Origin: Xanthobacteraceae bacterium
GTDB lineage: Bacteria; Pseudomonadota; Alphaproteobacteria; Rhizobiales; Xanthobacteraceae
DNA: 64,000 nt
Reading direction: 5' to 3'
Assembly: GCA_035693615.1 (NCBI GenBank)
Contig: DASSGH010000051.1
Span: 12,608-76,607, forward strand
The notes under the pieces are model-generated. The model made no database searches. It was given only the letters and a program-made list of their open reading frames with translations, and was not told where the DNA came from. The position numbers and the translations under genes were made by a program. Below are positions 2,932 through 52,448 of the stretch, in pieces. The number at the start of each line of letters is the position of its first letter. Position 1 is the first letter of the stretch.

Positions 2932-2962
2932 GTGTGCGTAGCGGCAGTTGCCATCGATCGTC

Positions 2963-3045
2963 ATGCGCGGGCTTGACCCGCGCATCCATCTCTTTCGCAA
3001 GAAGCTTTACGATAATGGATGGATTGCCGGGTCAAGCCCGGCAAT
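2963..3045. repeat. pair of REP-like 23-bp palindromes in inverted orientation
   Basis: ATGCGCGGG-CTTGA-CCCGCGCAT (2963-2985) and ATTGCCGGG-TCAAG-CCCGGCAAT (3023-3045). The loops are reverse complements of each other. They lie in the ccdA / SBP intergenic space. Confidence 0.6.
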
Positions 3046-3085
3046 GACTACGGATATAGATCGGTGCCGGTGATCGCTGGCGTAA

Positions 3086-3140: not shown

Positions 3141-4259
3141 TCACTCGATCTCGGTGTAGGTGATCTTGCCGCTGGGGTCCTTCTTCCAGACGTAGACGGT
3201 GTAATCGATGCGGGTCACGTCACCCTTCTTGTCGTAGGACAATTGCCCGATCACGGTGTTGAACTTCTGGCCGGACTTGATTTGGGCCGCAACCTTCTTG
3301 GGATCGAGCGATTTCGCCGCCTCGGCGGCCTGTTTGATCACCTGCACTGCGGCGTAGCTGTAGAGCGTGTAGGCCTGCGGCTCGAAATTCTTGGCGCGGA
3401 ATTTGGCGACGATGTCCTTCGCTTCCTGCCGCTTTCGCGCATCTGGGCCGAACGTCATCAGCGTGCCCTCGGCGCCTGGGCCGGCGATCGCCGCGAACTC
3501 CTCGTCGGCGATGCCGTCGGCTCCCATGAACGGCGCCTTGACGCCCTGGGCGCGCAGCTGCCGCAGGATCAAGCCGCCGGTGTCGTGCAGCCCGCCCCAA
3601 TAGATGAGGTCGGCGTTCGACGCCTTGACCTTGGATACGAGCGCCGAGAAATCCTTGTCGTCCTTGTTGACGCCTTCAAACATCACTTCCTTGACGCCCT
3701 TGGCGTTGAGGTTCTTGCGCGTCTCCTCGGCGAGGCCCTGCCCGTAGGTCGTCTTGTCGTGCACGATGGCGACCTTCTTGCCCTTGAAATTCTTGGCAAT
3801 GTAATCGCCCGCGACCGCGCCCTGCTGGTCGTCGCGGCCGCAGGTGCGGAAGATGTTCCACATGTTGCGCTCGGTCACCTTGGGATTGGTGGCCGCGGGC
3901 GTGATCACGAGCATGCCGTTCTCCTGGTAGACCTCGGAGGCCGGGATGGTGACGCCCGAATTGAAGTGCCCAACGACGAATTTGACGCCGTCGCCGACGA
4001 ACTTGTTGGCGACCGAGACGCCTTCCTTCGGATCGGCGCGGTCGTCGCCGACGAAAACCTGGATCTTCTGTCCGAGAATGCCGCCGGCGGCGTTGATGTC
4101 CTCGACCGCCTGCTCGACGCCGTTCTTGAGCTGCGCGCCGAACGCGGCGCTGCCGCCGGTGATCGGTCCGGCGACGCCCAACTTGATTTGCGCCGAAGCG
4201 TGATCCGCAAAAGCAAGGCCAAGACCGAGGGCGAGGCTGAGCGTGAGCCATTGTCTCAT
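3141..4259 (-). CDS. branched-chain amino acid ABC transporter substrate-binding protein (LivJ/LivK family)
   Basis: The track ORF is 3141-4421. I prefer the internal ATG at 4257-4259, preceded by GAGGTGG, which gives the signal peptide MRQWLTLSLALGLGLAFADHASA. IKLGVAGPITGGSAAFG... is typical of Leu/Ile/Val-binding proteins. Confidence 0.85.
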   Translation of the reverse strand: MRQWLTLSLALGLGLAFADHASAQIKLGVAGPITGGSAAFGAQLKNGVEQAVEDINAAGGILGQKIQVFVGDDRADPKEGVSVANKFVGDGVKFVVGHFNSGVTIPASEVYQENGMLVITPAATNPKVTERNMWNIFRTCGRDDQQGAVAGDYIAKNFKGKKVAIVHDKTTYGQGLAEETRKNLNAKGVKEVMFEGVNKDDKDFSALVSKVKASNADLIYWGGLHDTGGLILRQLRAQGVKAPFMGADGIADEEFAAIAGPGAEGTLMTFGPDARKRQEAKDIVAKFRAKNFEPQAYTLYSYAAVQVIKQAAEAAKSLDPKKVAAQIKSGQKFNTVIGQLSYDKKGDVTRIDYTVYVWKKDPSGKITYTEIE

Positions 4260-4347
4260 AGTGTCCACCTCTGGATGAAAACGCAGGTTGAGCGCGTTTC
4301 GTTTCTCGCGCCCCGTGACGCGATTCAACCCGCAAATCGCGGAAATG

Positions 4348-4742
4348 TCACTCGGATTTTGGCGTATCCGCGGCCGGCGTATCGTCGCGGCGCCGCCAGC
4401 GAAATGGCCCCGCGCGTTCATGGATCCATTTGTAGCGGGTGACCATCTGGGTGGCGCGCGTGAGGTGAAAGCCGAGCGAGCCGAAGGCGAGGCAGACCGC
4501 GTAATCGACGAGATAGTAATGCAGCGACAAGAACTTGCCTTCGAACAATGCGTAGTGGAGGAAACGCACCGCAGCGCTTAGCGGCAACATGTAGAGTGCG
4601 AGATGCCACCACGGTCGCCAGGTCGAGGCGATCGCACGGCCGGCGAGCCAAGCGGCGGCGCCGCCCATGACGATGCTCACCAGAAAAAACACGGCAAGCG
4701 AGTGCTCGTCGGACAGCAGTTCGGGGATCGAGATGTGCATGC

Positions 4743-7501: not shown

Positions 7502-8910
7502 CGGTGGCGCTCCCGCACCAGCGAAGGCTGCGTCGTCTGCGCTTTCTCCTCGTGCAGGCGCGAAGAGCGGGCAACGTTGAGCAGCGTCGAGGGTTCGCGC
7601 GTGGCGATCAGGCCGCGCGGCCTCCAGATCATGATCAGCACCATGCCGAAGCCGAACAGCAGCATGCGATACTGGGCGGGATCGAAATCGCTGCCGAATA
7701 CGGCTTTGAGGAAATCAAGCTCGCGCATGATCTCGGTGCCGCCGATCATGATGACAGCGGCGATCGCCACCCCGAGCAGGCTGCCCATGCCGCCGAGCAC
7801 GACGATGGCGACGATCACCGCCGATTCCATGAAGGTGAAGCTTTCCGGCGAAATGAATCCCTGCCGCGCCGCGAAGAACGATCCGGCAAAGCCGGCGAAC
7901 ATCGCGCCCATGGCAAATGCGGTGAGCTTGGTGTTGGTGGTGTTAATGCCGAGCGAACGGCAGGCGATCTCGTCCTCGCGCAATGCCTCCCACGCCCGCC
8001 CGATCGGCAGCCGGCGCAGCCGCACCGTCAGCGCGGCGGTAACGAGCGCGAGCGCGAGGATGAGGTAGTAAAGGAAGACCGTGCGGTAGACCGGACTGAA
8101 CTCGAGCCCGAAACGGGCGGCAAAGCCTTCGTCCGAGGCGTTGAACGGAATGCCGAAGAAGGTCGGCCGCGGGATGCTGCTGATCCCGGCATAGCCGTTG
8201 GTCACGGGAACCCAGTTGATCAGGATGAGCCGGATGATCTCGCCGAAGGCGAGCGTCACGATCGCGAGGTAGTCGCCGCGCAACCGCAGCACGGGAAAGC
8301 CCAGCAGAATGCCCCAGAACGCGGCCAGGCAGCCGGCGACCGGAAGCAGGATCCAGAACGACAGGCCGAAGCTGTTCGCCAGCAAAGCGTAGGAATAGGC
8401 GCCTACGGCATAGAAGGCGACGTAGCCGAGATCGAGCAGGCCGGCGAGCCCGACCACAATGTTGAGCCCCCAGCCGAGCATCACGTAAATGAGGATCTGG
8501 ACGCCGAAATTGTCGACCCATTTAACCGCGCCCTGGGTTCCCGCGAGCGACAGCGCCAGTGCCGGATAGACGACGGCAAAACCCAGCGCAAACGGAACGA
8601 CCCAGCGCGCGCCTCGCGCGCGCGGCGCGGTGCGCACGGCATGCTCCCGTCGCTGCCGCTGCGCGCGACGGTCGAGCCAGGGCGCGATCAGGATCGCGTG
8701 CAGGAAACGCCCGGCGGCAATGATCGCCACCAGCGCCGCCAGCAACGGCCAGCGCGTCTCGAGCACGATCTCGTTGCGGATGTTCTGGACCGTGTTGAAG
8801 CCGATCAGCGGCAGCAACAGCCCGAAGGTGATCAGGCCGGTGATGGCGGCTTGGCGCAGCGCGCCGATAATATCGACGCGCGAGGCGGGGGCTGACGCCT
8901 CGAGCGCCAT
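7498..8910 (-). CDS. livM: branched-chain amino acid ABC transporter permease LivM
   Basis: The track ORF is 7498-8928. The ATG at 8908-8910 (MALEASAP...) lies one base after the livH stop. The protein is polytopic with an [14 protein letters not shown] core. Confidence 0.85.
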
Positions 8911-33442: not shown

Positions 33443-36076
33443 ATGCGCAGGAGGAGGCTCGGCGATGGAGCTGGCGCTGTAACCGACGTCGGCGACGGGG
33501 GCGATCTCGAGGGTGTGCCCTTTTTGCCCCCCGCGTCCGCGACACGATTGACAGACGCTGCCGCCGTGACGAGCGCTCCCGCCGTGTCAGGCGCCGCTCC
33601 CGTGCCAGGCATTGGCTCATTGGCAGTCGTTGCGTCCGCCCCGCCGGCGGCCGCTGCGGCAAGCGCCTATTCCGTCGCGTCGCCGGCGCCAAACGCGGCG
33701 ACGGGCGAAGTTGGCCCCACTGGCGCCACACCGGACCAAGTTCGCCAGACGCTGAACGCGACAAATCTCAGCGTCACCGGCGCAGGCTTCACGGTCGGCG
33801 TCCTATCCGACAGCTTCGACTATCTGGGCGGGGCGGCGGCGGACGAAGCCAACGGGGCGCTGCCGCCCGCCTCGCAAGTGAGCGTGCTGAAGGACCTCCC
33901 GAACCCCAACAACCCCCCCGGCTCGGACGAGGGGCGCGCGATGATGCAGATCGTGCACGACGTCGCCCCTGGCGCCAATCTCGACTTCTACACCGCCTTT
34001 GTCAGCCAGCAGGATTTCGCCGCCGGAATCCTCGCCCTCGCCAACAACGCAGGGTGTCGCGTCATCTGCGACGACGTCGGCTATTTCGCTGAACCATTCT
34101 ACCAGACGGGTATCGTGGGCAATGCGATCCAGACGGTCGAGCAAGAAGGCGTCATCTACCTCACGTCGGCGGGCAACAGTGGCTCGGTCGGCTATCAAGC
34201 CGCGTGGAACCCGATCCAGATGGCGACTGTCGGCTCAACGGTCCTTCGCAACACCCAGGATTTTGGCAACGGCAGTCCAACACAAACCGTCACGGTCGCG
34301 CCCGACCAGGACGGCTCGAACGCAAGGTTCGTCGTTCAATGGAACCAGCCCTTCGGGGCAGCGACATCGAACCTCGAAGTCGTGGTGTTCTTAAACAACG
34401 TTGTCGTCGCGACCGTCACGGGAAATGGGCGCGATCCCGTTATCATATTCACGCTCCCACCGGGGGAAACCTATACGATTGCCATTCAAAACTTGTCCGG
34501 TCCCAATCCGGGCCTCATCAGAGAGGCTGCCGTCAGCAACGCTAGTCTGGTCACGATGCAGGGTGCAAACGCGGGCACCACGCAAGGTCACGTAAACTCG
34601 CCCTACGCCCTCGCGGTGGGAGCGGTGAATGCGGCGAACACTCCGGGTCTGGGCGGCACGCTCCGGAGCGAAAATTTCTCGGCGAGCGGGGCCGGGACGC
34701 AACTCTGGTTCAATAACGATGGCTCGGCCATTCCCGGTGGACCCCTCGTTTTTAATCCGGTTGCGGTCTCCGGCATCGACAACATCAACACCACCGTCCC
34801 AAAGTTTGACCCATTTTTCGGCACGTCGGCTGCGGCGCCAAGCGTGGCCGGCGTGGTCGCCGACATGCTGCAGGCGAACCCCAATCTGACGTTCGCGCGG
34901 GTCAAGCAGACCTTGCAGCAGACGGCGTTACCCTTCGGCGATCCGCTCGTCGCCGGTGCGGGTTTGGTCGACGCCGCGGCCGCCGTACAGCTCGCGCTGC
35001 AAACGGCAACATTCGCCACCACCGCGAACTTGGTGCTGCGAACGAAGGTTCTTGATCCGGCCAGCCCCAACCAAAGCCTCTATCGAATCTACAGTATCGG
35101 AAGCGACGCGCTCCTGGCGGCGAACCAGCTGGGCAAAGTTGGAAGCGATTATGGATTTGTCACGCTCGGCAGCTTTTTCGACGGCGACACAGCCGACATG
35201 TTGCTGCGCAGCTCCACCAGCGGCGCATTCCAGGTCTATAACATCGCCCCCAACAGCAACAATCTCATAGGTTCGGCCTCGCTGGGTGCGGTCGGATTGA
35301 ACTGGCAGTTCTCTGGCACCGGGAATTTCAGCAGCCTCGGCGAGACCGACATGCTCCTGCGCGACGCCAATAGCGGCGGCTTGCAGGTCTACAACATCAG
35401 CAACAATCAAATCATCGGCTCCGCCTTCATGGGCGCGGTGGGATTGAATTGGCAGTTCTCGGGCATCGGCAATTTCAGCGGCCGCGGCACGAGCGATATG
35501 CTGCTGCGCGACGCCAATACCGGGGGACTGCAGGCCTACAACATCAACAGCAATCAGATCACCGGCTCTGCCTTTATGGGCGCGGTCGGGGTGGATTGGC
35601 AGTTCTCCGGCGTCGGCAACTTCAGCAGCGCCCCCGGCGAAAGCGATCTCTTGTTGCGCAACGTCAACACCGGCGGGCTCTTGCTCTATGACATTGCCAA
35701 CAATCAGATCACCGGCTCGTTCTTCCTGGGCAACGTCGGGCTCGACTGGCAGTTCGCGGGCGTCGCTTCCATCAGCGCCGCCGGCGCCTCCGATCTCGTG
35801 CTGCGTAACAATCTCGGCGCGTTTCAGGCCTACACCATCGCGGGCAATAATCTCGTGGGATCAGCCAGCTTAGGCGCGCCCGGCCCGGATTGGCAGCTTG
35901 GCGGCTTCGCGTCCAGCACTCCGACCGGCTCCATGGGCAGCTTGGACGGCTCAACCTCTCAGCTCGTGCAGGCGATGGCTGGTTTTGATGGCGGTGGCGG
36001 CGCTGGCAATCTGAACACTGTTCCTCTCGGCGCCGACACATCACAACAGACGTTTCTGACAACGCCGCACGCGTGA
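33443..36076 (+). CDS. S8 (subtilisin-like) serine peptidase fused to C-terminal FG-GAP/VCBS-like repeats
   Basis: 877 aa, with GGGGGAGG 4 nt before the ATG. Candidate triad contexts are GVLSDSFD (Asp), IVHDVAPGA (His) and GTSAAAPSVAGV (Ser). Five to six roughly 47-aa repeats of form G.(N/D)WQF.G.GNF...G..D(M/L)LLR....G.L..Y.I..N. Confidence 0.
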   Translation: MRRRRLGDGAGAVTDVGDGGDLEGVPFLPPASATRLTDAAAVTSAPAVSGAAPVPGIGSLAVVASAPPAAAAASAYSVASPAPNAATGEVGPTGATPDQVRQTLNATNLSVTGAGFTVGVLSDSFDYLGGAAADEANGALPPASQVSVLKDLPNPNNPPGSDEGRAMMQIVHDVAPGANLDFYTAFVSQQDFAAGILALANNAGCRVICDDVGYFAEPFYQTGIVGNAIQTVEQEGVIYLTSAGNSGSVGYQAAWNPIQMATVGSTVLRNTQDFGNGSPTQTVTVAPDQDGSNARFVVQWNQPFGAATSNLEVVVFLNNVVVATVTGNGRDPVIIFTLPPGETYTIAIQNLSGPNPGLIREAAVSNASLVTMQGANAGTTQGHVNSPYALAVGAVNAANTPGLGGTLRSENFSASGAGTQLWFNNDGSAIPGGPLVFNPVAVSGIDNINTTVPKFDPFFGTSAAAPSVAGVVADMLQANPNLTFARVKQTLQQTALPFGDPLVAGAGLVDAAAAVQLALQTATFATTANLVLRTKVLDPASPNQSLYRIYSIGSDALLAANQLGKVGSDYGFVTLGSFFDGDTADMLLRSSTSGAFQVYNIAPNSNNLIGSASLGAVGLNWQFSGTGNFSSLGETDMLLRDANSGGLQVYNISNNQIIGSAFMGAVGLNWQFSGIGNFSGRGTSDMLLRDANTGGLQAYNINSNQITGSAFMGAVGVDWQFSGVGNFSSAPGESDLLLRNVNTGGLLLYDIANNQITGSFFLGNVGLDWQFAGVASISAAGASDLVLRNNLGAFQAYTIAGNNLVGSASLGAPGPDWQLGGFASSTPTGSMGSLDGSTSQLVQAMAGFDGGGGAGNLNTVPLGADTSQQTFLTTPHA
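35141..35917 (+). repeat. in-frame tandem coding repeats (about 141-147 bp unit, 5 full copies plus a partial one) inside the S8 peptidase gene
   Basis: Repeated peptide blocks are GLNWQFSGTGNFSSLGETDMLLRDANSGGLQVYNISNNQIIGSAFMGAV, GLNWQFSGIGNFSGRGTSDMLLRDANTGGLQAYNINSNQITGSAFMGAV, and so on. Confidence 0.8.
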
Positions 36077-40637: not shown

Positions 40638-41402
40638 TCATCCCCGCCCGACGAACGGCATCAGGTTGGCCATCACCGTCAAGAACAGCACGTTGGTGTC
40701 GAGGGGGAGATTGACGATATAGACGACGGCCCGGCCGACGTCGTCGGCGTTCATGCGCGCCTCGATCGCCATGCGCCCGTCCGCTTGCATCACGCCTTGG
40801 CCTTGCACCATGCGCTCCGTCAGCGGAGTTGCGGCATTGCCGATGTCGATCTGGCTGCAGGTGATGTTGTAGTCGCGGCAGTCGAGCGACGTCGATTTGG
40901 TCAGTCCCGTCACTGCGTGCTTGGTTGCGGTGTAGGCGACCGAGCGCGGGCGTGGGGTATGCGCGGAGATCGACCCGTTGTTGATGATGCGGCCGCCGCG
41001 CGGGTCCTGCGCCTTCATGATCCTGATCGCTTCCTGCGTGCACAAGAACATGCCGGTGAGATTGATATCGACGACTTGCTTCCAGGTCTCGTATGGCAGG
41101 TCCTCGAGTGGCACCGCCGGAGCGCCGATCCCGGCATTGTTGAAGAGGACGTCGAGACGCCCGAACGTATCCTTGGCCTTGGCGAATAGCGCCTTGATCG
41201 ATGCCGGATCGCTCACGTCCGTCGCCACGACGAGCGCTTTGGCGCCGGTCGATTTGCCCTCGTTCGCGGTTTCCTCCAGTTTGTCCTTGCGCCGGCCCGC
41301 CAACACGGCGGCGTAGCCTTCCTTCATCAGCGCCAGCGCCACCGCCTTGCCGATGCCGGTCCCCGCGCCGGTGACCAGTGCGACCTTTTGCAACTCAGCC
41401 AT
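40638..41402 (-). CDS. SDR family oxidoreductase
   Basis: 254 aa with the TGAGTGIG cofactor motif, NNAG and a YTATK catalytic motif. Confidence 0.85.
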
Positions 41403-41462
41403 CGTTCGACCCTCCGCAAATCAGGCCATTATCGTCATGGCCTATGCGTGGAGGCAATGCGG

Positions 41463-41630
41463 CTAGTGCCCGGTTTTCGAAGTTCGTGATACAGCGCGGC
41501 ACCTTCGGGCACGAACTTCGAAAACCAAAGGGCACTAGCGACTCTACGATTCTAGTGCCGCTTTTCGATTTGAAATTCCTAACGCGGACTCGCGGCACAT
41601 GATGCAGGAATTTCAAATCGGCGGCACTAG
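41463..41630 (+). repeat. CTAG-bounded double-hairpin intergenic element, copy A (168 bp)
   Basis: Module 1 (41463-41538) has 26 paired positions. A 13-nt spacer follows. Module 2 (41552-41630) has 25 paired positions. It is 94% identical to 47449-47616 by hand alignment. Confidence 0.9.
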
Positions 41631-41635
41631 CCCGT

Positions 41636-42382
41636 TCAGCGGATGTTCTTGTAGGGCGGGCGCGGGATGCCGGCGTGCGCCGCGCGCAGCGCCGCCGACC
41701 AGCGCTCCCGCAGGTCGTGGAAATACGGCTCCCCTGGCTCGATCCGGAAGTTGAGTTCTGCGTCGCAGACGTCACGTCGCGCGATCAGCACGTCGATCGG
41801 CAGGCCCACGCTGAGATTTGAGCGCATGGTCGAATCGACGGAGACCAGGCCCACCTTGAGGGCATCGTAGAGATCGATGTCGTAGGTGATCGCGCGATCG
41901 AGCACCGGCTTGCCGTATTTGTGCTCGCCGATCTGCAGGTAGGGCGTATCCTGCGTGCATTCGATGAAATTGCCGGCGGCGTAGAGCATGAACAAGCGCG
42001 GCCGCTCGCCCTTGATCTGCCCGCCCAGCAGGAACGAGACGTCGAAATTCACTTCCGAAGCCTGGAGTGCCTCGCCCTCGATCTTGTGCAGTTGGCGGAT
42101 GATGTGGCCGACGCGCTGCGCCGCCTGAAACATGGTCGGTGCGTTCATCAGCGTCTCGGTTTCGCCGGTCTCGAGGTTTTCCCAGCCCTCGCGCAAAATG
42201 CTGACCACAGATTGACTGATGGAGAGGTTGCCGGCCGAGGCGATCGCCATGATGCGCTGGCCTGGCCGAATGAGGACATGCAGCTTGCGGAAGGTGGAAA
42301 TGTTATCGACGCCGGCGTTGGTGCGGGTGTCGGCGAACATCACGAGGCCGTCTCGCACCAGGATGCCACAGCAATAGGTCAT
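41636..42382 (-). CDS. proteasome-type peptidase, Anbu (ancestral beta subunit) family
   Basis: 248 aa. MTYCCGILVRDGLVMFADTRTNAG has Thr directly after Met, so there is no propeptide. It is in an operon with the alpha-E and circularly permuted ATP-grasp genes. Confidence 0.8.
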   Translation of the reverse strand: MTYCCGILVRDGLVMFADTRTNAGVDNISTFRKLHVLIRPGQRIMAIASAGNLSISQSVVSILREGWENLETGETETLMNAPTMFQAAQRVGHIIRQLHKIEGEALQASEVNFDVSFLLGGQIKGERPRLFMLYAAGNFIECTQDTPYLQIGEHKYGKPVLDRAITYDIDLYDALKVGLVSVDSTMRSNLSVGLPIDVLIARRDVCDAELNFRIEPGEPYFHDLRERWSAALRAAHAGIPRPPYKNIR

Positions 42383-42611
42383 GACGGTGCAGCGCTCCTG
42401 TCAGGCGGTCCGCGCCCTATATACCGATGCCGGCGGCCAGGCGGCAATCTTTCCTCAATTCTGGGTCTGCTGCGCCGCCTGCTCGGCATGCGCGAACAAA
42501 CGAGGACCGCTGAGGCCGAAGCATACTCGGCGAAACGGGCGAGGCCCACCGCAGTCGCGCGACGCCACGCCTCGCAGCAACTTTGTGCCGTCGCGGCAGC
42601 GTCCCGCCCTC

Positions 42612-45056: not shown

Positions 45057-45379
45057 GGCTGTTCCCCGCTCCTGCGCTCTCGTCGCCGGCGCCTGCACAA
45101 TCCTAGCTGCAAGCCACGCGCCAACCAAAGGGGTATCGGCTGGGCGCAGACAATCCCCGTCTGCCCAGCTTTTGGGCGGCGGCTGATGAAGGAATGACGC
45201 CGCGCGTCACGTGGCGTTTTGCTTGGCCGCTACGGCGCGAACACCCGCTTGAGACGTTCGATCAGCGGGCGCGTGCTCGCGTAAATCCGGCCAGGCAAGC
45301 GCATGGGCCTACGACGTGCGAAGCACAGAGGAGGCCGCATGACCGTGACGCGGCTGATCGCGCGCGCAGCTTGATCCGC

Positions 45380-46012
45380 TTACGCCGGGATTGGAACGTC
45401 GCCGACATCCTTGGGCACTTTGTAGCCCTTCTGCACGGCCGGACGCTTGGCGATGGTCGTGTACCAGCGCTTCACGTTGGGGTACGCGCTGAGGTCGATG
45501 GTCTGCCATTCGTACCGCGACACCCACGGCCAGATGGCGATGTCGGCGATGGAATAACCGTCGGCGACGAACTCGTGTCCGGCGAGTCTGCGGTCGAGCA
45601 CGCCGTAGAGTCGCTGCGCCTCCTTGAGGAAGCGCTCCTCGGCGTAGGGCGCCTTGCCTTTGTTGTATTTCACGAAATGGTGGACTTGGCCGAACATCGG
45701 TCCGGGTCCTCCCATCTGCCACATCAGCCATTCGAGCACGCGGTAGCGCGGCTCGCCCGATTTCGGCAGCAGCTTTCCGGTTTTGTCGGCGAGATAGATC
45801 ATGATCGCGGCCGATTCCATCAGGCTAATGCCGGTGTCGTGGTCGATGATGGCGGGGATGCGGTTGTTCGGGCTTATCTTCAAGAACTCAGGCTTGAACT
45901 GCTCGTCCTTGCTGATGTCGACGGGGTGTGCGGTATAGGGCAGAGCCAACTCCTCGAGCAGGATTGAGGCTTTGCGGCCATTGGGCGTCGTCCAGGTATA
46001 GAGATCGATCAC
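45380..46012 (-). CDS. glutathione S-transferase (YfcG/Nu-class-like)
   Basis: 210 aa, MIDLYTWTTPNGRKASILLEELALPY...ISPNNRIPAIID...ESAAIMIYLA. Confidence 0.8.
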   Translation of the reverse strand: MIDLYTWTTPNGRKASILLEELALPYTAHPVDISKDEQFKPEFLKISPNNRIPAIIDHDTGISLMESAAIMIYLADKTGKLLPKSGEPRYRVLEWLMWQMGGPGPMFGQVHHFVKYNKGKAPYAEERFLKEAQRLYGVLDRRLAGHEFVADGYSIADIAIWPWVSRYEWQTIDLSAYPNVKRWYTTIAKRPAVQKGYKVPKDVGDVPIPA

Positions 46013-46068: not shown

Positions 46069-46234
46069 CTAGTGTCCCGATTCCGAAGTTCGCATCATGG
46101 TGCTGCAGCCTCGTCTGCGAACTTCGGAATCGAAGGACACTCGCAACTTATTGATCTAGTGTGGCTTTGGTTCAGAAGTCCGCATTTCGGTTTCGCTGCA
46201 AAGAATGATGGGGACTTCTGAACCGCCACACTAG
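46069..46234 (+). repeat. CTAG-bounded double-hairpin intergenic element, divergent copy C (166 bp)
   Basis: It has the same two-module architecture and orientation as copies A and B but a different stem sequence, with paired (compensatory) changes. Module 1 is 46069-46143 and module 2 is 46156-46234. Confidence 0.85.
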
Positions 46235-46327: not shown

Positions 46328-47428
<1,101 letters not shown>

Positions 47429-47448
47429 CGCAGGCCTCCGATATCGGG

Positions 47449-47616
47449 CTAGTGCCCGGTTTTCGAAGTTCGTGATACAGCGCGGCACACTCGGGCACGA
47501 ACTTCGAAAACCAAAGGGCACTAGCAGCTCTATGATTCTAGTGCCGCTTTTCGATTTGAAATTCCTGAGGCGGACTCGCGGCACACCGTGCAGGAATTTC
47601 AAATCGGCGGCACTAG
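47449..47616 (+). repeat. CTAG-bounded double-hairpin intergenic element, copy B (168 bp)
   Basis: Twin of copy A. Ten mismatches in 168 nt, all in the two loops or the spacer. Confidence 0.9.
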
Positions 47617-47691
47617 CGTACAAGAACACGCGACACGAAATGGTTCCGCACGGCGGCACGATGTGTTCCGGCGCTTTCGACCGCCGTCCGT

Positions 47692-49569
47692 CTAAGCGTC
47701 ATGCGCGAGCGACACGACGAGCACGTCGGGATCGGGCGTCGACGCGAACAGCCGTTCGACGTCGCCCTTGCGCCGTTCGAGCGCAAGGCGCTGGTTGATG
47801 TAGCCTTTGTCGGTGATCTCATTGGCGTCGATCGAGGGGGCATCGGAGAAGAGCAGCACGCGTGCGATCTTTTGCGATGAGCCGGAATGCTCGGCATTCC
47901 AGCGGGCGATGGCGCGTCGGACGTGCTCGCGCAGGCCGGGATGACGGGCAAGCTCGGGGAGCGGCGCGTCGCAGCCGATGAGCTTGCGGCAGCCGGCGGC
48001 ATTGAGCCAGGCCAACATGCCGATCGACTCGCGGTTCTCGCCGGCAATGATGGCGTCTTGCAGCGCAGGGGAGGCGGCGGCGAGCGCGCCGACGCGCAGC
48101 ACGCCGACAGCGACCCAGGTGCCGGTGGCGAGCTTGAAATCTTCCGCCAGGCGCCCGTCGAAGATGATGCCTCGGCGCGGATCGGCGGGGTCGGCAAAGC
48201 GCACGGCATCGCCGGGCATATAGAAGCCTTCCTCGTCGAAGGCCGCACGCGTGAGGTCGGGCCGCTTCCAGTAGCCGGGCGTCACGTTCGGGCCGCGCAC
48301 GCGCACCTCGAGCTTGTCGGCGACGGGAACGAGCTTGAGTTCGACGCCGGGGACGGGCACCCCGACCGGGCCCGCCCGCTCGATCAAGAAATGCGCGGCG
48401 GTCGAGCACGGAGACGTCTCAGTCGTGCCCCAGGACGAGGTCATCGGCACCCGTTCGCCGATAGCGCGCAGCGACGCCGCCTCGAGCCGCTCCCACAGGT
48501 CCTGCGGCAGGGCAGCGCCGGCATAGAAGATCAGGCGCAACTTGGCGAAAAACGCGCGCGCCAACGCCTCGTCGCGCTCGAGAAACGGCAGCAGTGCCGC
48601 ATAGCCCGCCGGCACGTTGAAAAAGATCGTGGGCGAGACCTCGGCGAGGTTGCGCGCGGTTTCCTCGATCAGCCCCGGCACCGGCTTGCCGCCGTCGATG
48701 AACAGCGTGCCGGCATGGCGCAGCACCATATTGAAATTGTGGTTGCCGCCGAAGGTGTGGTTCCACGGCAGCCAATCGAGCAGCACGAAAGGCTGCTCGT
48801 CCAGAAACGGCCAAACCTGCGCGAGCTGCTCCTGGTTTGCCGTGAGCATGCCGTGAGTATTGATCACGCCCTTGGGCAGGCCGGTCGAACCGGAGGTGAA
48901 CAGGAATTTGGCAATCGTATCGGCGGCGATCGCCGCGGCGGCATTCTCCAGTGCCGGGCCGGCGCGACCCTGCAGCATCTGATCGAAGCCGGTGACGTCC
49001 TCGATATTAGCGCCATTGCGGGTTGCCACGAGCTCGACCTTGGCGAGATCGAGAGCGGCGAGGGCTTTGGCGAACGGAGCGGTATCGGCGACATAGATGA
49101 GGCCGGGCGCCAGCAAGGCGTCGATATGCTTGAGCTTGGCGTGATCTTGGCTCTGCAAGGAGTAAGCGACCGAGATCGGCGCCACCGGAATGCCGGCGGT
49201 GTAACCGGCGAGCGTGAGCAGCGCGTGGTCGATGGCGTTGGCGGAGAGGATCATCACCGGCCGCTCGGCCGAGAGCCCGCGTTCGATCAGCCCAGCTGCC
49301 AGTCGATCGACCAATGGACGCGCGGCCGCATAGGTCAATTTGCGCCAGTTGGTCCCCTCGCGTTCGGCCAGGAAGATGCCTGCGGGGTTGCGTTCGACTG
49401 CGGCGCGGAAAAGCCGTGCCAGGCTCGGATCGTGCGGCGCCAGAGCGTCACGCGAGCGGCAGCGCAACGCACCATCGGCGCCGCGCTCGCAGGCGATGTG
49501 CGGGGCCGCATAGGCGATCGGGCGTACCGGGGCCGGTGCTGGCATATAGTCTCCGCGCGTCAACTGCAT
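47692..49569 (-). CDS. AMP-binding acyl-CoA synthetase, feruloyl-CoA synthase-like
   Basis: 625 aa with the AMP-binding motif FTSGSTGLPKGV and a length and N-terminal region like Fcs-type ligases. The start may be 49545. Confidence 0.7.
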   Translation of the reverse strand: MQLTRGDYMPAPAPVRPIAYAAPHIACERGADGALRCRSRDALAPHDPSLARLFRAAVERNPAGIFLAEREGTNWRKLTYAAARPLVDRLAAGLIERGLSAERPVMILSANAIDHALLTLAGYTAGIPVAPISVAYSLQSQDHAKLKHIDALLAPGLIYVADTAPFAKALAALDLAKVELVATRNGANIEDVTGFDQMLQGRAGPALENAAAAIAADTIAKFLFTSGSTGLPKGVINTHGMLTANQEQLAQVWPFLDEQPFVLLDWLPWNHTFGGNHNFNMVLRHAGTLFIDGGKPVPGLIEETARNLAEVSPTIFFNVPAGYAALLPFLERDEALARAFFAKLRLIFYAGAALPQDLWERLEAASLRAIGERVPMTSSWGTTETSPCSTAAHFLIERAGPVGVPVPGVELKLVPVADKLEVRVRGPNVTPGYWKRPDLTRAAFDEEGFYMPGDAVRFADPADPRRGIIFDGRLAEDFKLATGTWVAVGVLRVGALAAASPALQDAIIAGENRESIGMLAWLNAAGCRKLIGCDAPLPELARHPGLREHVRRAIARWNAEHSGSSQKIARVLLFSDAPSIDANEITDKGYINQRLALERRKGDVERLFASTPDPDVLVVSLAHDA

Positions 49570-52360: not shown

Positions 52361-52448
52361 GGCCGCGTGGTGGAACGGTAGACACAGCAGACTTAAAATC
52401 TGCTTCTGGGAAACCGGAGTGCCGGTTCGAGTCCGGCCGCGGCCACCA
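52361..52448 (+). tRNA. tRNA-Leu (anticodon UAA), CCA encoded
   Basis: The acceptor stem GGCCGCG pairs with CGCGGCC. The D arm is GTGGAACGGTAGACAC, the anticodon loop is CT-TAA-AA, there is a long variable arm, and the T arm is GCCGG-TTCGAGT-CCGGC. The discriminator A is at 52445, followed by CCA. Confidence 0.9.

Follow-up and report, generated by a model that had tools for sequence, protein, structure and literature searches.

A CTAG-bounded double-hairpin repeat of Alphaproteobacteria is probably a non-autonomous transposon with IS630-type ends

Background

In a 64-kb stretch of contig DASSGH010000051.1 from a Xanthobacteraceae bacterium (assembly GCA_035693615.1; the whole stretch is called the window hereafter, and coordinates refer to it unless another locus is named), a 168-bp unit made of two long hairpins and bounded by CTAG lies at 41463–41630 on the + strand (copy A). 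It recurs with 94% identity as a second 168-bp doublet at 47449–47616, also on the + strand (copy B). The question raised by this locus is whether such a unit is an RNA, a DNA site used by the cell, a cluster of extragenic palindromes or the trace of a mobile element. From sequence comparisons, we consider it probable (at roughly 85%) that each unit of 166–168 bp is a non-autonomous transposon (miniature inverted-repeat transposable element, MITE) derived from an insertion sequence (IS) of the IS630 family (Tc1/mariner-type), since its arms are terminal inverted repeats of IS630 elements. We regard the unit as the footprint of a mobile element and not as a novel functional device of RNA or DNA, and no new biological principle is involved.

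Structure of the unit

Each unit folds as two hairpins of ~26 bp on either strand (+ strand: −95.7 kcal/mol, z = −9.7; − strand: −99.2 kcal/mol, z = −11.0), and none of 200 shuffled sequences folded as well as the real unit. In copy A, module 1 (left-IS-end type, 41463–41538) is joined by a linker (41539–41551) to module 2 (right-IS-end type, 41552–41630), while in copy B the same parts occupy 47449–47524, 47525–47537 and 47538–47616. The two copies (41463–41630 vs. 47449–47616) were aligned with MAFFT without gaps over 168 nt, and the 10 mismatches were located in loop 1 (2), the 13-nt linker (3) and loop 2 (5), with none in the four arms; the probability that all 10 would land by chance in the 66 unpaired of 168 positions is 5.6e-5. 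Beyond the outer CTAGs, similarity continues for 2 bases on the left and 1 on the right (repeat 41461–41631 / 47447–47617, 94%), and the flanks are unrelated. The original prediction, made from the letters of this DNA alone, had described two hairpin modules with a 13-nt spacer, the same split of mismatches from a hand alignment, and a unit ending at its outer CTAGs, all of which agree with these results, the last to within 1–2 bases.

Correspondence of the arms to IS630 ends

The identity of the arms became apparent in a blastn search of plasmids with the family consensus doublet, the first 25 bases of which match (24/25) at the exact end of an annotated IS630-family transposase gene on a Roseomonas mucosa plasmid (locus L136). 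A tblastn search with the R. mucosa transposase gave matches in 736 plasmid records, and five fetched loci contained complete or partial IS copies with the same termini. These termini read CTAGTGTCCTGATCGCGAAATTCCT ... AGAAATTTCGCGATCAGGACACTAG in Rhodovastum (L140, IS of 1158 bp) and CTAGTGTCCTGAGTCACAAGTTCGC ... GCGAACTTCTGGTTCAAGACACTAG in Bradyrhizobium guangxiense (L138, IS of 1212 bp), and the transposase of L140 belongs to the IS630 family according to NCBIfam (285 bits, cut-off 100). When hidden Markov models (HMMs) were built from the outer arms of the MITE alone, their best matches were the inward-facing termini of all 6 IS630 loci from plasmids. The left IS end is of the TCC type, as is module 1, and the right IS end of L137 is of the TGG type, as is module 2 (23 of 25 bases match the module-2 arm), so the doublet has, as its outer ends, counterparts of both IS ends in their proper order.

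The outer arm of module 1 is a copy of the left inverted repeat of the IS, starting with TA followed by GTG(T/C)CC, and that of module 2 is a copy of the right inverted repeat, ending with (T/C)(G/C)G..CAC followed by TA. A short loop separates each outer arm from a second, inverted copy of the arm, and it is due to these doubled copies that the unit has the appearance of two hairpins with a conserved linker of 12–14 bp between them. The outer arms are collinear with the IS ends, while the inner arms hold 2–4 extra bases between the terminal GTGTCC and the remainder, which appear in the fold as a bulge. The earlier statement that the unit is not an IS is therefore correct only in a narrow sense, as its arms are IS630 terminal inverted repeats.

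Elements of the IS630 family insert at TA and duplicate it (PMC2170065), and IS630 itself prefers a TA inside CTAG, according to the Tenzen work as relayed in PMC2170065. Together, the duplication and this preference explain why each module is bounded by CTAG. If copy A follows the IS630 model, its mobile part would extend from GTG to CAC (41466–41627), with the TA dinucleotides at 41464–41465 and 41628–41629 within the CTAGs. An origin from an IS5-type element with a 4-bp CTAG duplication had also been considered and was dropped when the IS630 ends were found.

As a separate observation on the R. mucosa locus (plasmid p2, L136 2501–5007), two matching IS630-type ends are 2.5 kb apart and the 5' region of the transposase has an internal inverted duplication near 3569 and 4877; this IS is either rearranged or represents two truncated copies.

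A third copy, and filled and empty insertion sites

The twin of copy A had been correctly recognized, but a third, diverged copy on the + strand was missed (copy C, 46069–46234). It was first flagged by a loose search for the end motif and is a doublet of 166 bp from a different subfamily, one whose ends are of the TCC/TGG type; it consists of module 1 (46069–46143, its outer-facing inner end mutated to CACTCG), a linker (46144–46155) and module 2 (46156–46234). The plan of two hairpins is that of copies A and B; the arms differ from theirs at many positions, with both arms of each hairpin altered together, and the copy is 88–92% identical to copies in unrelated metagenome-assembled genomes (MAGs). 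A profile HMM run on the window recovered exactly these three copies, all on the + strand (125–145 bits on the + strand, 56–65 bits on the − strand), and no solo or decayed modules.

Copies B and C flank a gene for an HtrA-like protease, and 80 metagenome loci encoding relatives of this protease were compared. Copy B is missing in every relative that has DNA at that site, at protease identities of 93% and below. The empty site reads ...TTCGATAGACCGATGCC... (short form TTCGATAGACCG), and the filled site ...TACGCTAG-element-CTAGCCCGATATC... (short right flank CTAGCCCG). Copy C is present in the close relatives L142 and L144 and missing in L143 and L145, with ...GCCGGTTAGCGCGCG... (short form GGTTAGCGCG) at the empty and ...GCCCGCTAG-element-CTAGCGTGCG... 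(short form CGCTAG-element-CTAGCGTG) at the filled site. In both cases, the empty site has a single (N)TAG where the filled one has a CTAG on each side, which fits a duplication of TA as far as sequence can tell.

Members of the same family have also inserted independently in other relatives, at other positions of the same spacer (L153–L157 and L168, ~29 nt after the protease stop codon; L191, with three modules) or upstream (L217). As independent insertions are found both in the spacer between the protease and glutathione S-transferase (GST) genes and in the region upstream of the protease, the family has landed in these gaps repeatedly. Copies located at unrelated loci of the same genome are 96–98% identical.

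DNA versus RNA constraint

A structured RNA was weighed as an explanation, i.e., a multicopy small RNA (sRNA) gene or a cis-acting intercistronic element that stabilizes, processes or terminates mRNA, in which the hairpins are selected for pairing in the transcript. Hairpins that are very stable on both strands, semi-conserved motifs in the loops and the common orientation of the three window copies between co-directional genes all speak in its favor, as does the covariation of the arms: among 65 diverse doublets, 34 of 49 base pairs have changes on both sides, and the covariation score (0.389) was higher than that of all 500 shuffles (mean 0.130) and of all slid controls. However, the correspondence of the arms to IS630 ends explains this covariation without RNA, and several results are difficult to reconcile with an RNA. 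G:T mismatches (30) are about as frequent as A:C mismatches (27), so wobble pairs are tolerated on neither strand. When 56 doublets were compared with their flanking genes, no strand bias was detected (co-directional 13 vs. 18, convergent 9, divergent 16). Rfam returned only a tRNA in the window at gathering thresholds, and at E values up to 10 only chance matches to eukaryotic or archaeal snoRNA, miRNA and lncRNA models. No U-tract terminator was found, nor an element-borne promoter in a promoter scan of 8 kb, and copies are missing from the same sites in close relatives, as described above.

In addition, the stems decay where they sit. Orthologous copies in near-identical metagenome contigs differ from those of the window by uncompensated stem changes, such as a 4-nt deletion in the module-2 arm of copy A and a G20A change in copy C (both in L004), or an end of copy A that reads CACTGG instead of CACTAG (L001–L003). 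Copy C of the window itself has, besides its CACTCG, a pair-breaking G. This decay in place indicates that the stems are unprotected at these loci, and the clean pattern between copies A and B fits source copies whose arms are held by the need for recognition by the transposase. The constraint thus acts on DNA, a function as RNA is not supported, and we rate the structured-RNA explanation as highly improbable.

Several claims of the original prediction are affected. That every difference lies outside the stems is true of the pair A/B, where no stem substitution was found, and fails for copy C and the orthologues. The selection that it implied to protect the stems at these loci is not supported, since a constraint on source copies explains the A/B pattern better. 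Likewise, the analogies it drew with sRNAs and with repetitive extragenic palindromes (REPs) and bacterial interspersed mosaic elements (BIMEs) find no support in view of the target-site signature, the presence/absence polymorphism, the lack of an orientation bias or of a G:U excess, and the decay of stems. Its view of the unit as non-coding and not a U-tract terminator was borne out.

The tRNA gene, the sole Rfam match in the window, is located at 52361–52445 (85 nt, long variable arm, 60 bits). A sigma-70-like promoter match (TTGCCT, 18 nt, GATAAT) was noticed at 41457–41428 on the − strand, just outside the left end of copy A and upstream of the SDR gene; it was the sole one in 8 kb, which is no more than expected by chance.

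Size, range and architecture of the family

Family members were searched with a pattern of the ends in which the stem sequence was left free (CTAGTGYS, 55–70 nt, SRCACTAG, 8–18 nt, CTAGTGYS). Applied to reference genomes (one genome per species), it matched at least 120 loci, and in a set of viral contigs it recovered true members with very different stems. Among the matches listed, every named organism is an alphaproteobacterium, the carriers being Bradyrhizobium, Afipia, Xanthobacteraceae, Hyphomicrobium, Mesorhizobium, Devosia, Caulobacter, Hyphomonadaceae, Parvularculaceae, relatives of Magnetospirillum, Rhodopila, Rhizomicrobium and Micropepsaceae. A hairpin detector counted at least 252 modules in the loci listed.

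Units of the family measure 161–179 bp, and their main arrangement is the doublet, in which a bulge of 2–4 nt interrupts the 3' arm of the first module and the 5' arm of the second. Linkers of 13 nt are the most common (58 cases), followed by those of 12 nt (16) and 14 nt (15); abutting doublets have one CTAG in common, and beyond the CTAGs the flanks have neither conservation nor a longer duplication. None of the 56 scored doublets lies inside a gene. Among elements not selected through the search pattern, 13 were doublets, always in the order module 1 to module 2, and 10 were solo modules, so the linkage of the two modules that had been proposed is usual and not invariable. An HMM of module 1 scores module 2 better on the minus strand, which identifies the two modules as paralogues in inverted orientation. 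Semi-conserved motifs are present in the loops (GCNGCA in both), and loop and linker motifs are common across orders; GCNGCA had been entertained as a directional sign of RNA and was dropped, as module 2 is the inverted paralogue of module 1. A repeated de novo birth of the doublet from the IS of each lineage is unlikely for the reason that these loop and linker motifs are common across orders.

Arrays of 3–6 modules also occur. For instance, L085 has two back-to-back doublets with a common CTAG (4100–4434; 7571–7740 is also listed) and more copies in the same 8 kb, and L013 has three modules in a row at 3919–4172 (type 1, type 1, type 2), from which it follows that modules can recombine or insert beside each other.

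A mosaic unit of palindromic modules with bulges in opposite orientation, a short linker and arrays of this kind could also suggest a REP/BIME cluster or REPIN, in which short extragenic palindromes alternate in orientation, owe their spread to a RAYT transposase (an IS200/IS605-like tyrosine enzyme) and are put to use by proteins of the host, and REPs with GTAG or CGTC tags are known in Bradyrhizobium and relatives (PMC3733652). REPs are, however, defined as imperfect palindromes of 20–40 bp with a GTAG or CGTC tag and no target duplication (PMC3733652), whereas the modules studied here are hairpins of 75–79 nt with arms of 25–26 bp that are not short palindromes themselves, their ends are CTAGTG/CACTAG with neither tag, and they have the TA/CTAG insertion signature that REPs lack. 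Moreover, the arms match the ends of DDE-type IS630 elements and not the REPs that flank RAYT genes. For these reasons, we give the REP/BIME explanation almost no credence.

Integron attC-like or Xer-type recombination sites, which likewise combine a conserved structure with variable sequence and bulges, were rejected, since no cassette logic was recognized and the ends are those of IS630.

No named repeat or sRNA family matched the unit by sequence, Rfam included, as had been anticipated, although the kind of element is known. Likewise, our literature search on the end sequence, RIME1 and IS630 MITEs in Rhizobiales/Bradyrhizobium found no description of this family, which is apparently large and without a name. 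With 72,556 plasmids as the database, blastn gave no match for copy A or for a Mesorhizobium doublet, and matches were obtained only with the Bradyrhizobium-type consensus.

Some members were found in less expected places. Four plasmid matches in Roseibium and Labrenzia (H1–H4) are full-length doublets with 69% identity to the consensus, located under a coding sequence annotated as 'SDR family oxidoreductase', which is probably a gene call over-extended through the MITE. Other members are on short contigs classed as viral in IMG/VR (L007, L008, L010, L013, and L014) and may be misclassified bacterial DNA or prophage-borne copies.

Linker and GANTC sites

The linker consensus of the family is CAAnnnTATGATT, and its reverse complement (AATCATAnnnTTG) resembles the consensus site of integration host factor (IHF), WATCARNNNNTTR. 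At least 8 of 9 fixed positions of the IHF consensus are matched in 45% of 95 doublets vs. 2% of shuffled linkers. Copy A is a weak case: its linker (CGACTCTACGATT) matches the IHF site poorly and contains two GANTC (CcrM) sites, at 41540 and 41548. In the family, GANTC is present at 2.2 per doublet vs. 0.65 in shuffles (~3.4-fold), and doublets are ~9-fold denser in this motif than the window as a whole (1.5 per kb). The conserved GANTC columns are in both arms of module 1, where the linker meets module 2, and within loop 2; the motif is found at the same place in two left IS ends, while the subfamily of copies A and B has no GANTC sites in its arms.

The enrichment of GANTC at conserved columns, the IHF-like linker, the conservation of loop and linker motifs across orders and an architecture like the one published for the CIR repeats (PMC2229807; PMC10969869) could mean that the unit is a DNA site recruited by the host, one that presents CcrM and IHF sites for cell-cycle, nucleoid or gene regulation and for which mobility is only the origin. 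Against such a role, the insertion sites are not conserved between close relatives and the copies decay in place. The best-conserved GANTC sites are, in addition, part of the IS-derived arm consensus and of the IS ends themselves, so they may serve transposition rather than the host, and the A/B subfamily does without those of the arms. We consider host recruitment improbable.

Comparison with known repeats

The RUP element of Streptococcus pneumoniae, for which an IS630 origin has been proposed as well, is similar in being small, non-coding and intergenic, with IS630-like terminal inverted repeats, insertion at TA and a presumed mobilization in trans (PMC2229807). It differs in its length of 107 bp and in forming one stem from its paired ends, whereas here each IS end is doubled into its own hairpin, which results in four arm copies and a conserved linker; the family described here has alphaproteobacterial hosts and, like IS630 itself, targets CTAG. 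Correia elements (NEMIS) of Neisseria are MITEs of 100–160 bp with terminal inverted repeats of ~24–26 bp and a TA duplication, and they resemble the present family, with its IHF-like linker, in having a central IHF site (in the 155-bp element) and long RNA hairpins when transcribed (PMC2229807). In contrast, they have a single end-to-end stem, are AT-rich and reside in Betaproteobacteria, and no parent IS has been established for them; for Correia elements, IHF binding was demonstrated in vitro, whereas here there is a resemblance to the consensus only. The comparison with Correia-type MITEs that the original prediction had offered nevertheless points to the correct class.

Closest in design are the CIR repeats of Caulobacter and Brucella, which, compared by description, also occur in Alphaproteobacteria and have two inverted-repeat arms with a linker, TA ends, GANTC sites and a strictly intergenic location (PMC2229807; PMC10969869). 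The mechanism of their mobility was stated as unknown, and no transposase partner was known (PMC2229807), whereas the arms described here match IS630 ends. The Bru-RS1/Bru-RS2 sequences of Brucella were taken from the supplement of PMC2267715, and eight of them were tested. When folded, they form two hairpins joined by a linker of ~14 nt, with 4-nt bulges adjacent to this linker, as in the present family. However, Bru-RS/CIR repeats are ~103–110 bp long (~105 nt for the Bru-RS sequences studied) vs. 165–170 bp here, the Bru-RS ends are TAGAGC...GCTCTA instead of CTAGTG...CACTAG, and GANTC is in the terminal loop in CIR/Bru-RS, while here it is in the arms, the linker junction and loop 2. Doublet and module HMMs (nhmmer) gave no match to the eight Bru-RS sequences at E values up to 10; CTAGTG is absent from both Bru-RS sequence files, and CACTAG occurs once, in the chromosome I file. 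The fold in two hairpins together with the lack of an HMM match indicates the same design in a different sequence family. If the architecture is common to them, CIR and Bru-RS repeats may also be mobilized by IS630-type transposases.

RIME1 (Rhizobium-specific intergenic mosaic element) is described as an intergenic mosaic of two large palindromes and short linking modules in Sinorhizobium/Rhizobium. Two doublets of the family had no blastn match in Sinorhizobium/Rhizobium plasmids.

Proposed mechanism and points against it

The movement of the unit can be pictured from what is established for the IS630 family. A transposase of this family, encoded elsewhere in the genome, would bind the arms and excise the unit, which would then be reinserted at a TA, preferably within CTAG, and the duplication of TA would leave a CTAG at both ends. 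The linker is probably an IHF-like bend site by which the two ends of an element of only 168 bp can be brought together. With their altered spacing, the inner arms would probably be poor substrates for the transposase, such that the doublet usually moves as a whole; the solo modules indicate that this is not absolute. Dam sites couple the transposition of IS10 and IS50 to replication, and the GANTC sites in arms, linker and loop could similarly couple transposase binding to the CcrM methylation state or to replication. Where the hairpins are transcribed, they may alter the stability or read-through of neighboring mRNAs.

Several points weigh against the derivation from IS630 or limit what supports it. 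No IS630 transposase gene was found in the window or in ~0.9 Mb of MITE-bearing loci, from which it follows that the copies are non-autonomous, and no IS partner with exactly the A/B-type ends (CTAGTGCCC...) was found. As CTAG is palindromic, the sequence does not distinguish a duplication of TA from one of TAG or CTAG. Both empty sites have A or T in front of the TA, where the filled sites have C, which is a weak point of the model: either insertion needed a CTAG acquired only by the host lineage, which is the reading we prefer, or the model of the junction is incomplete. The detection of modules demanded good hairpins and near-perfect ends, so the pairing percentages (97.8%) are inflated. 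Finally, a plain MITE needs no inner arms, conserved linker or semi-conserved loop motifs, and as these are conserved across orders they point to extra constraints whose nature can only be guessed.

A broader and decidedly speculative reading, which we find unlikely although worth stating, would join these features. The two-arm design, i.e., an IS end folded back on itself, inner arms with altered spacing and an IHF-like bend in the linker, would be one ancient transposon architecture of Alphaproteobacteria, common to this family, CIR, Bru-RS and perhaps RIME. IS630-type transposases would mobilize it, CcrM hemimethylation of the GANTC sites in the arms would gate its movement, and the family would both feed on and multiply rare CTAG sites. 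Were this so, a mobility mechanism would be at hand for the long-unexplained CIR and Bru-RS repeats.

Genomic context in the window

All three copies lie in gaps between minus-strand genes, in the order AMP-binding enzyme, copy B, HtrA-like protease, copy C, GST, ATP-grasp, Alpha-E, proteasome-type protein, copy A, SDR. Copy A is located 5 nt downstream of the stop codon of the proteasome-type gene (41636–42382) and 60 nt upstream of the start of the SDR gene (40638–41402), both on the − strand. Copy B is located 75 nt after the stop codon of the AMP-binding enzyme gene (47692–49569) and 20 nt before the ATG of the protease gene (46328–47428), also on the − strand, and copy C separates the protease gene (stop at 46328) from the GST gene (45380–46012, −). 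Insertion so near to a start codon (copy B, 20 nt upstream) or a stop codon (copy A, 5 nt downstream) could alter the expression of the neighbors. Two other long intergenic gaps of this gene string (42383–42611 and 45057–45379) contain no copy of the MITE.

The window has 26 CTAG sites vs. ~208 expected from its base composition (~8-fold under-representation), and 11 of the 26 belong to the three MITE copies. With each inserted doublet, a single target CTAG becomes four, and insertions in tandem and in clusters may have their reason in this gain.

In annotation, a repeat that probably abounds in Alphaproteobacteria of soil and water, many MAGs among them, can now be given a name and a proposed mechanism. 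Such elements confuse the prediction of sRNAs and terminators as well as gene calling, and spurious open reading frames (ORFs) cross copies B and C in the window. As presence or absence varies between strains with > 90% protein identity, the insertions are usable as strain markers.

Two further repeats were noticed in the window. An intergenic-looking inverted repeat at 2953–3055 (38-nt arms, 76% complementary, core CGGGCTTGACCCG...CGGGTCAAGCCCG) bears no relation to the MITE and is possibly a REP-like element. At 35251–35775, 3–4 tandem repeats of 147–150 nt (71–83% identical) are located within an ORF of 877 aa (33443–36076, +), which presumably encodes a repeat-domain protein.

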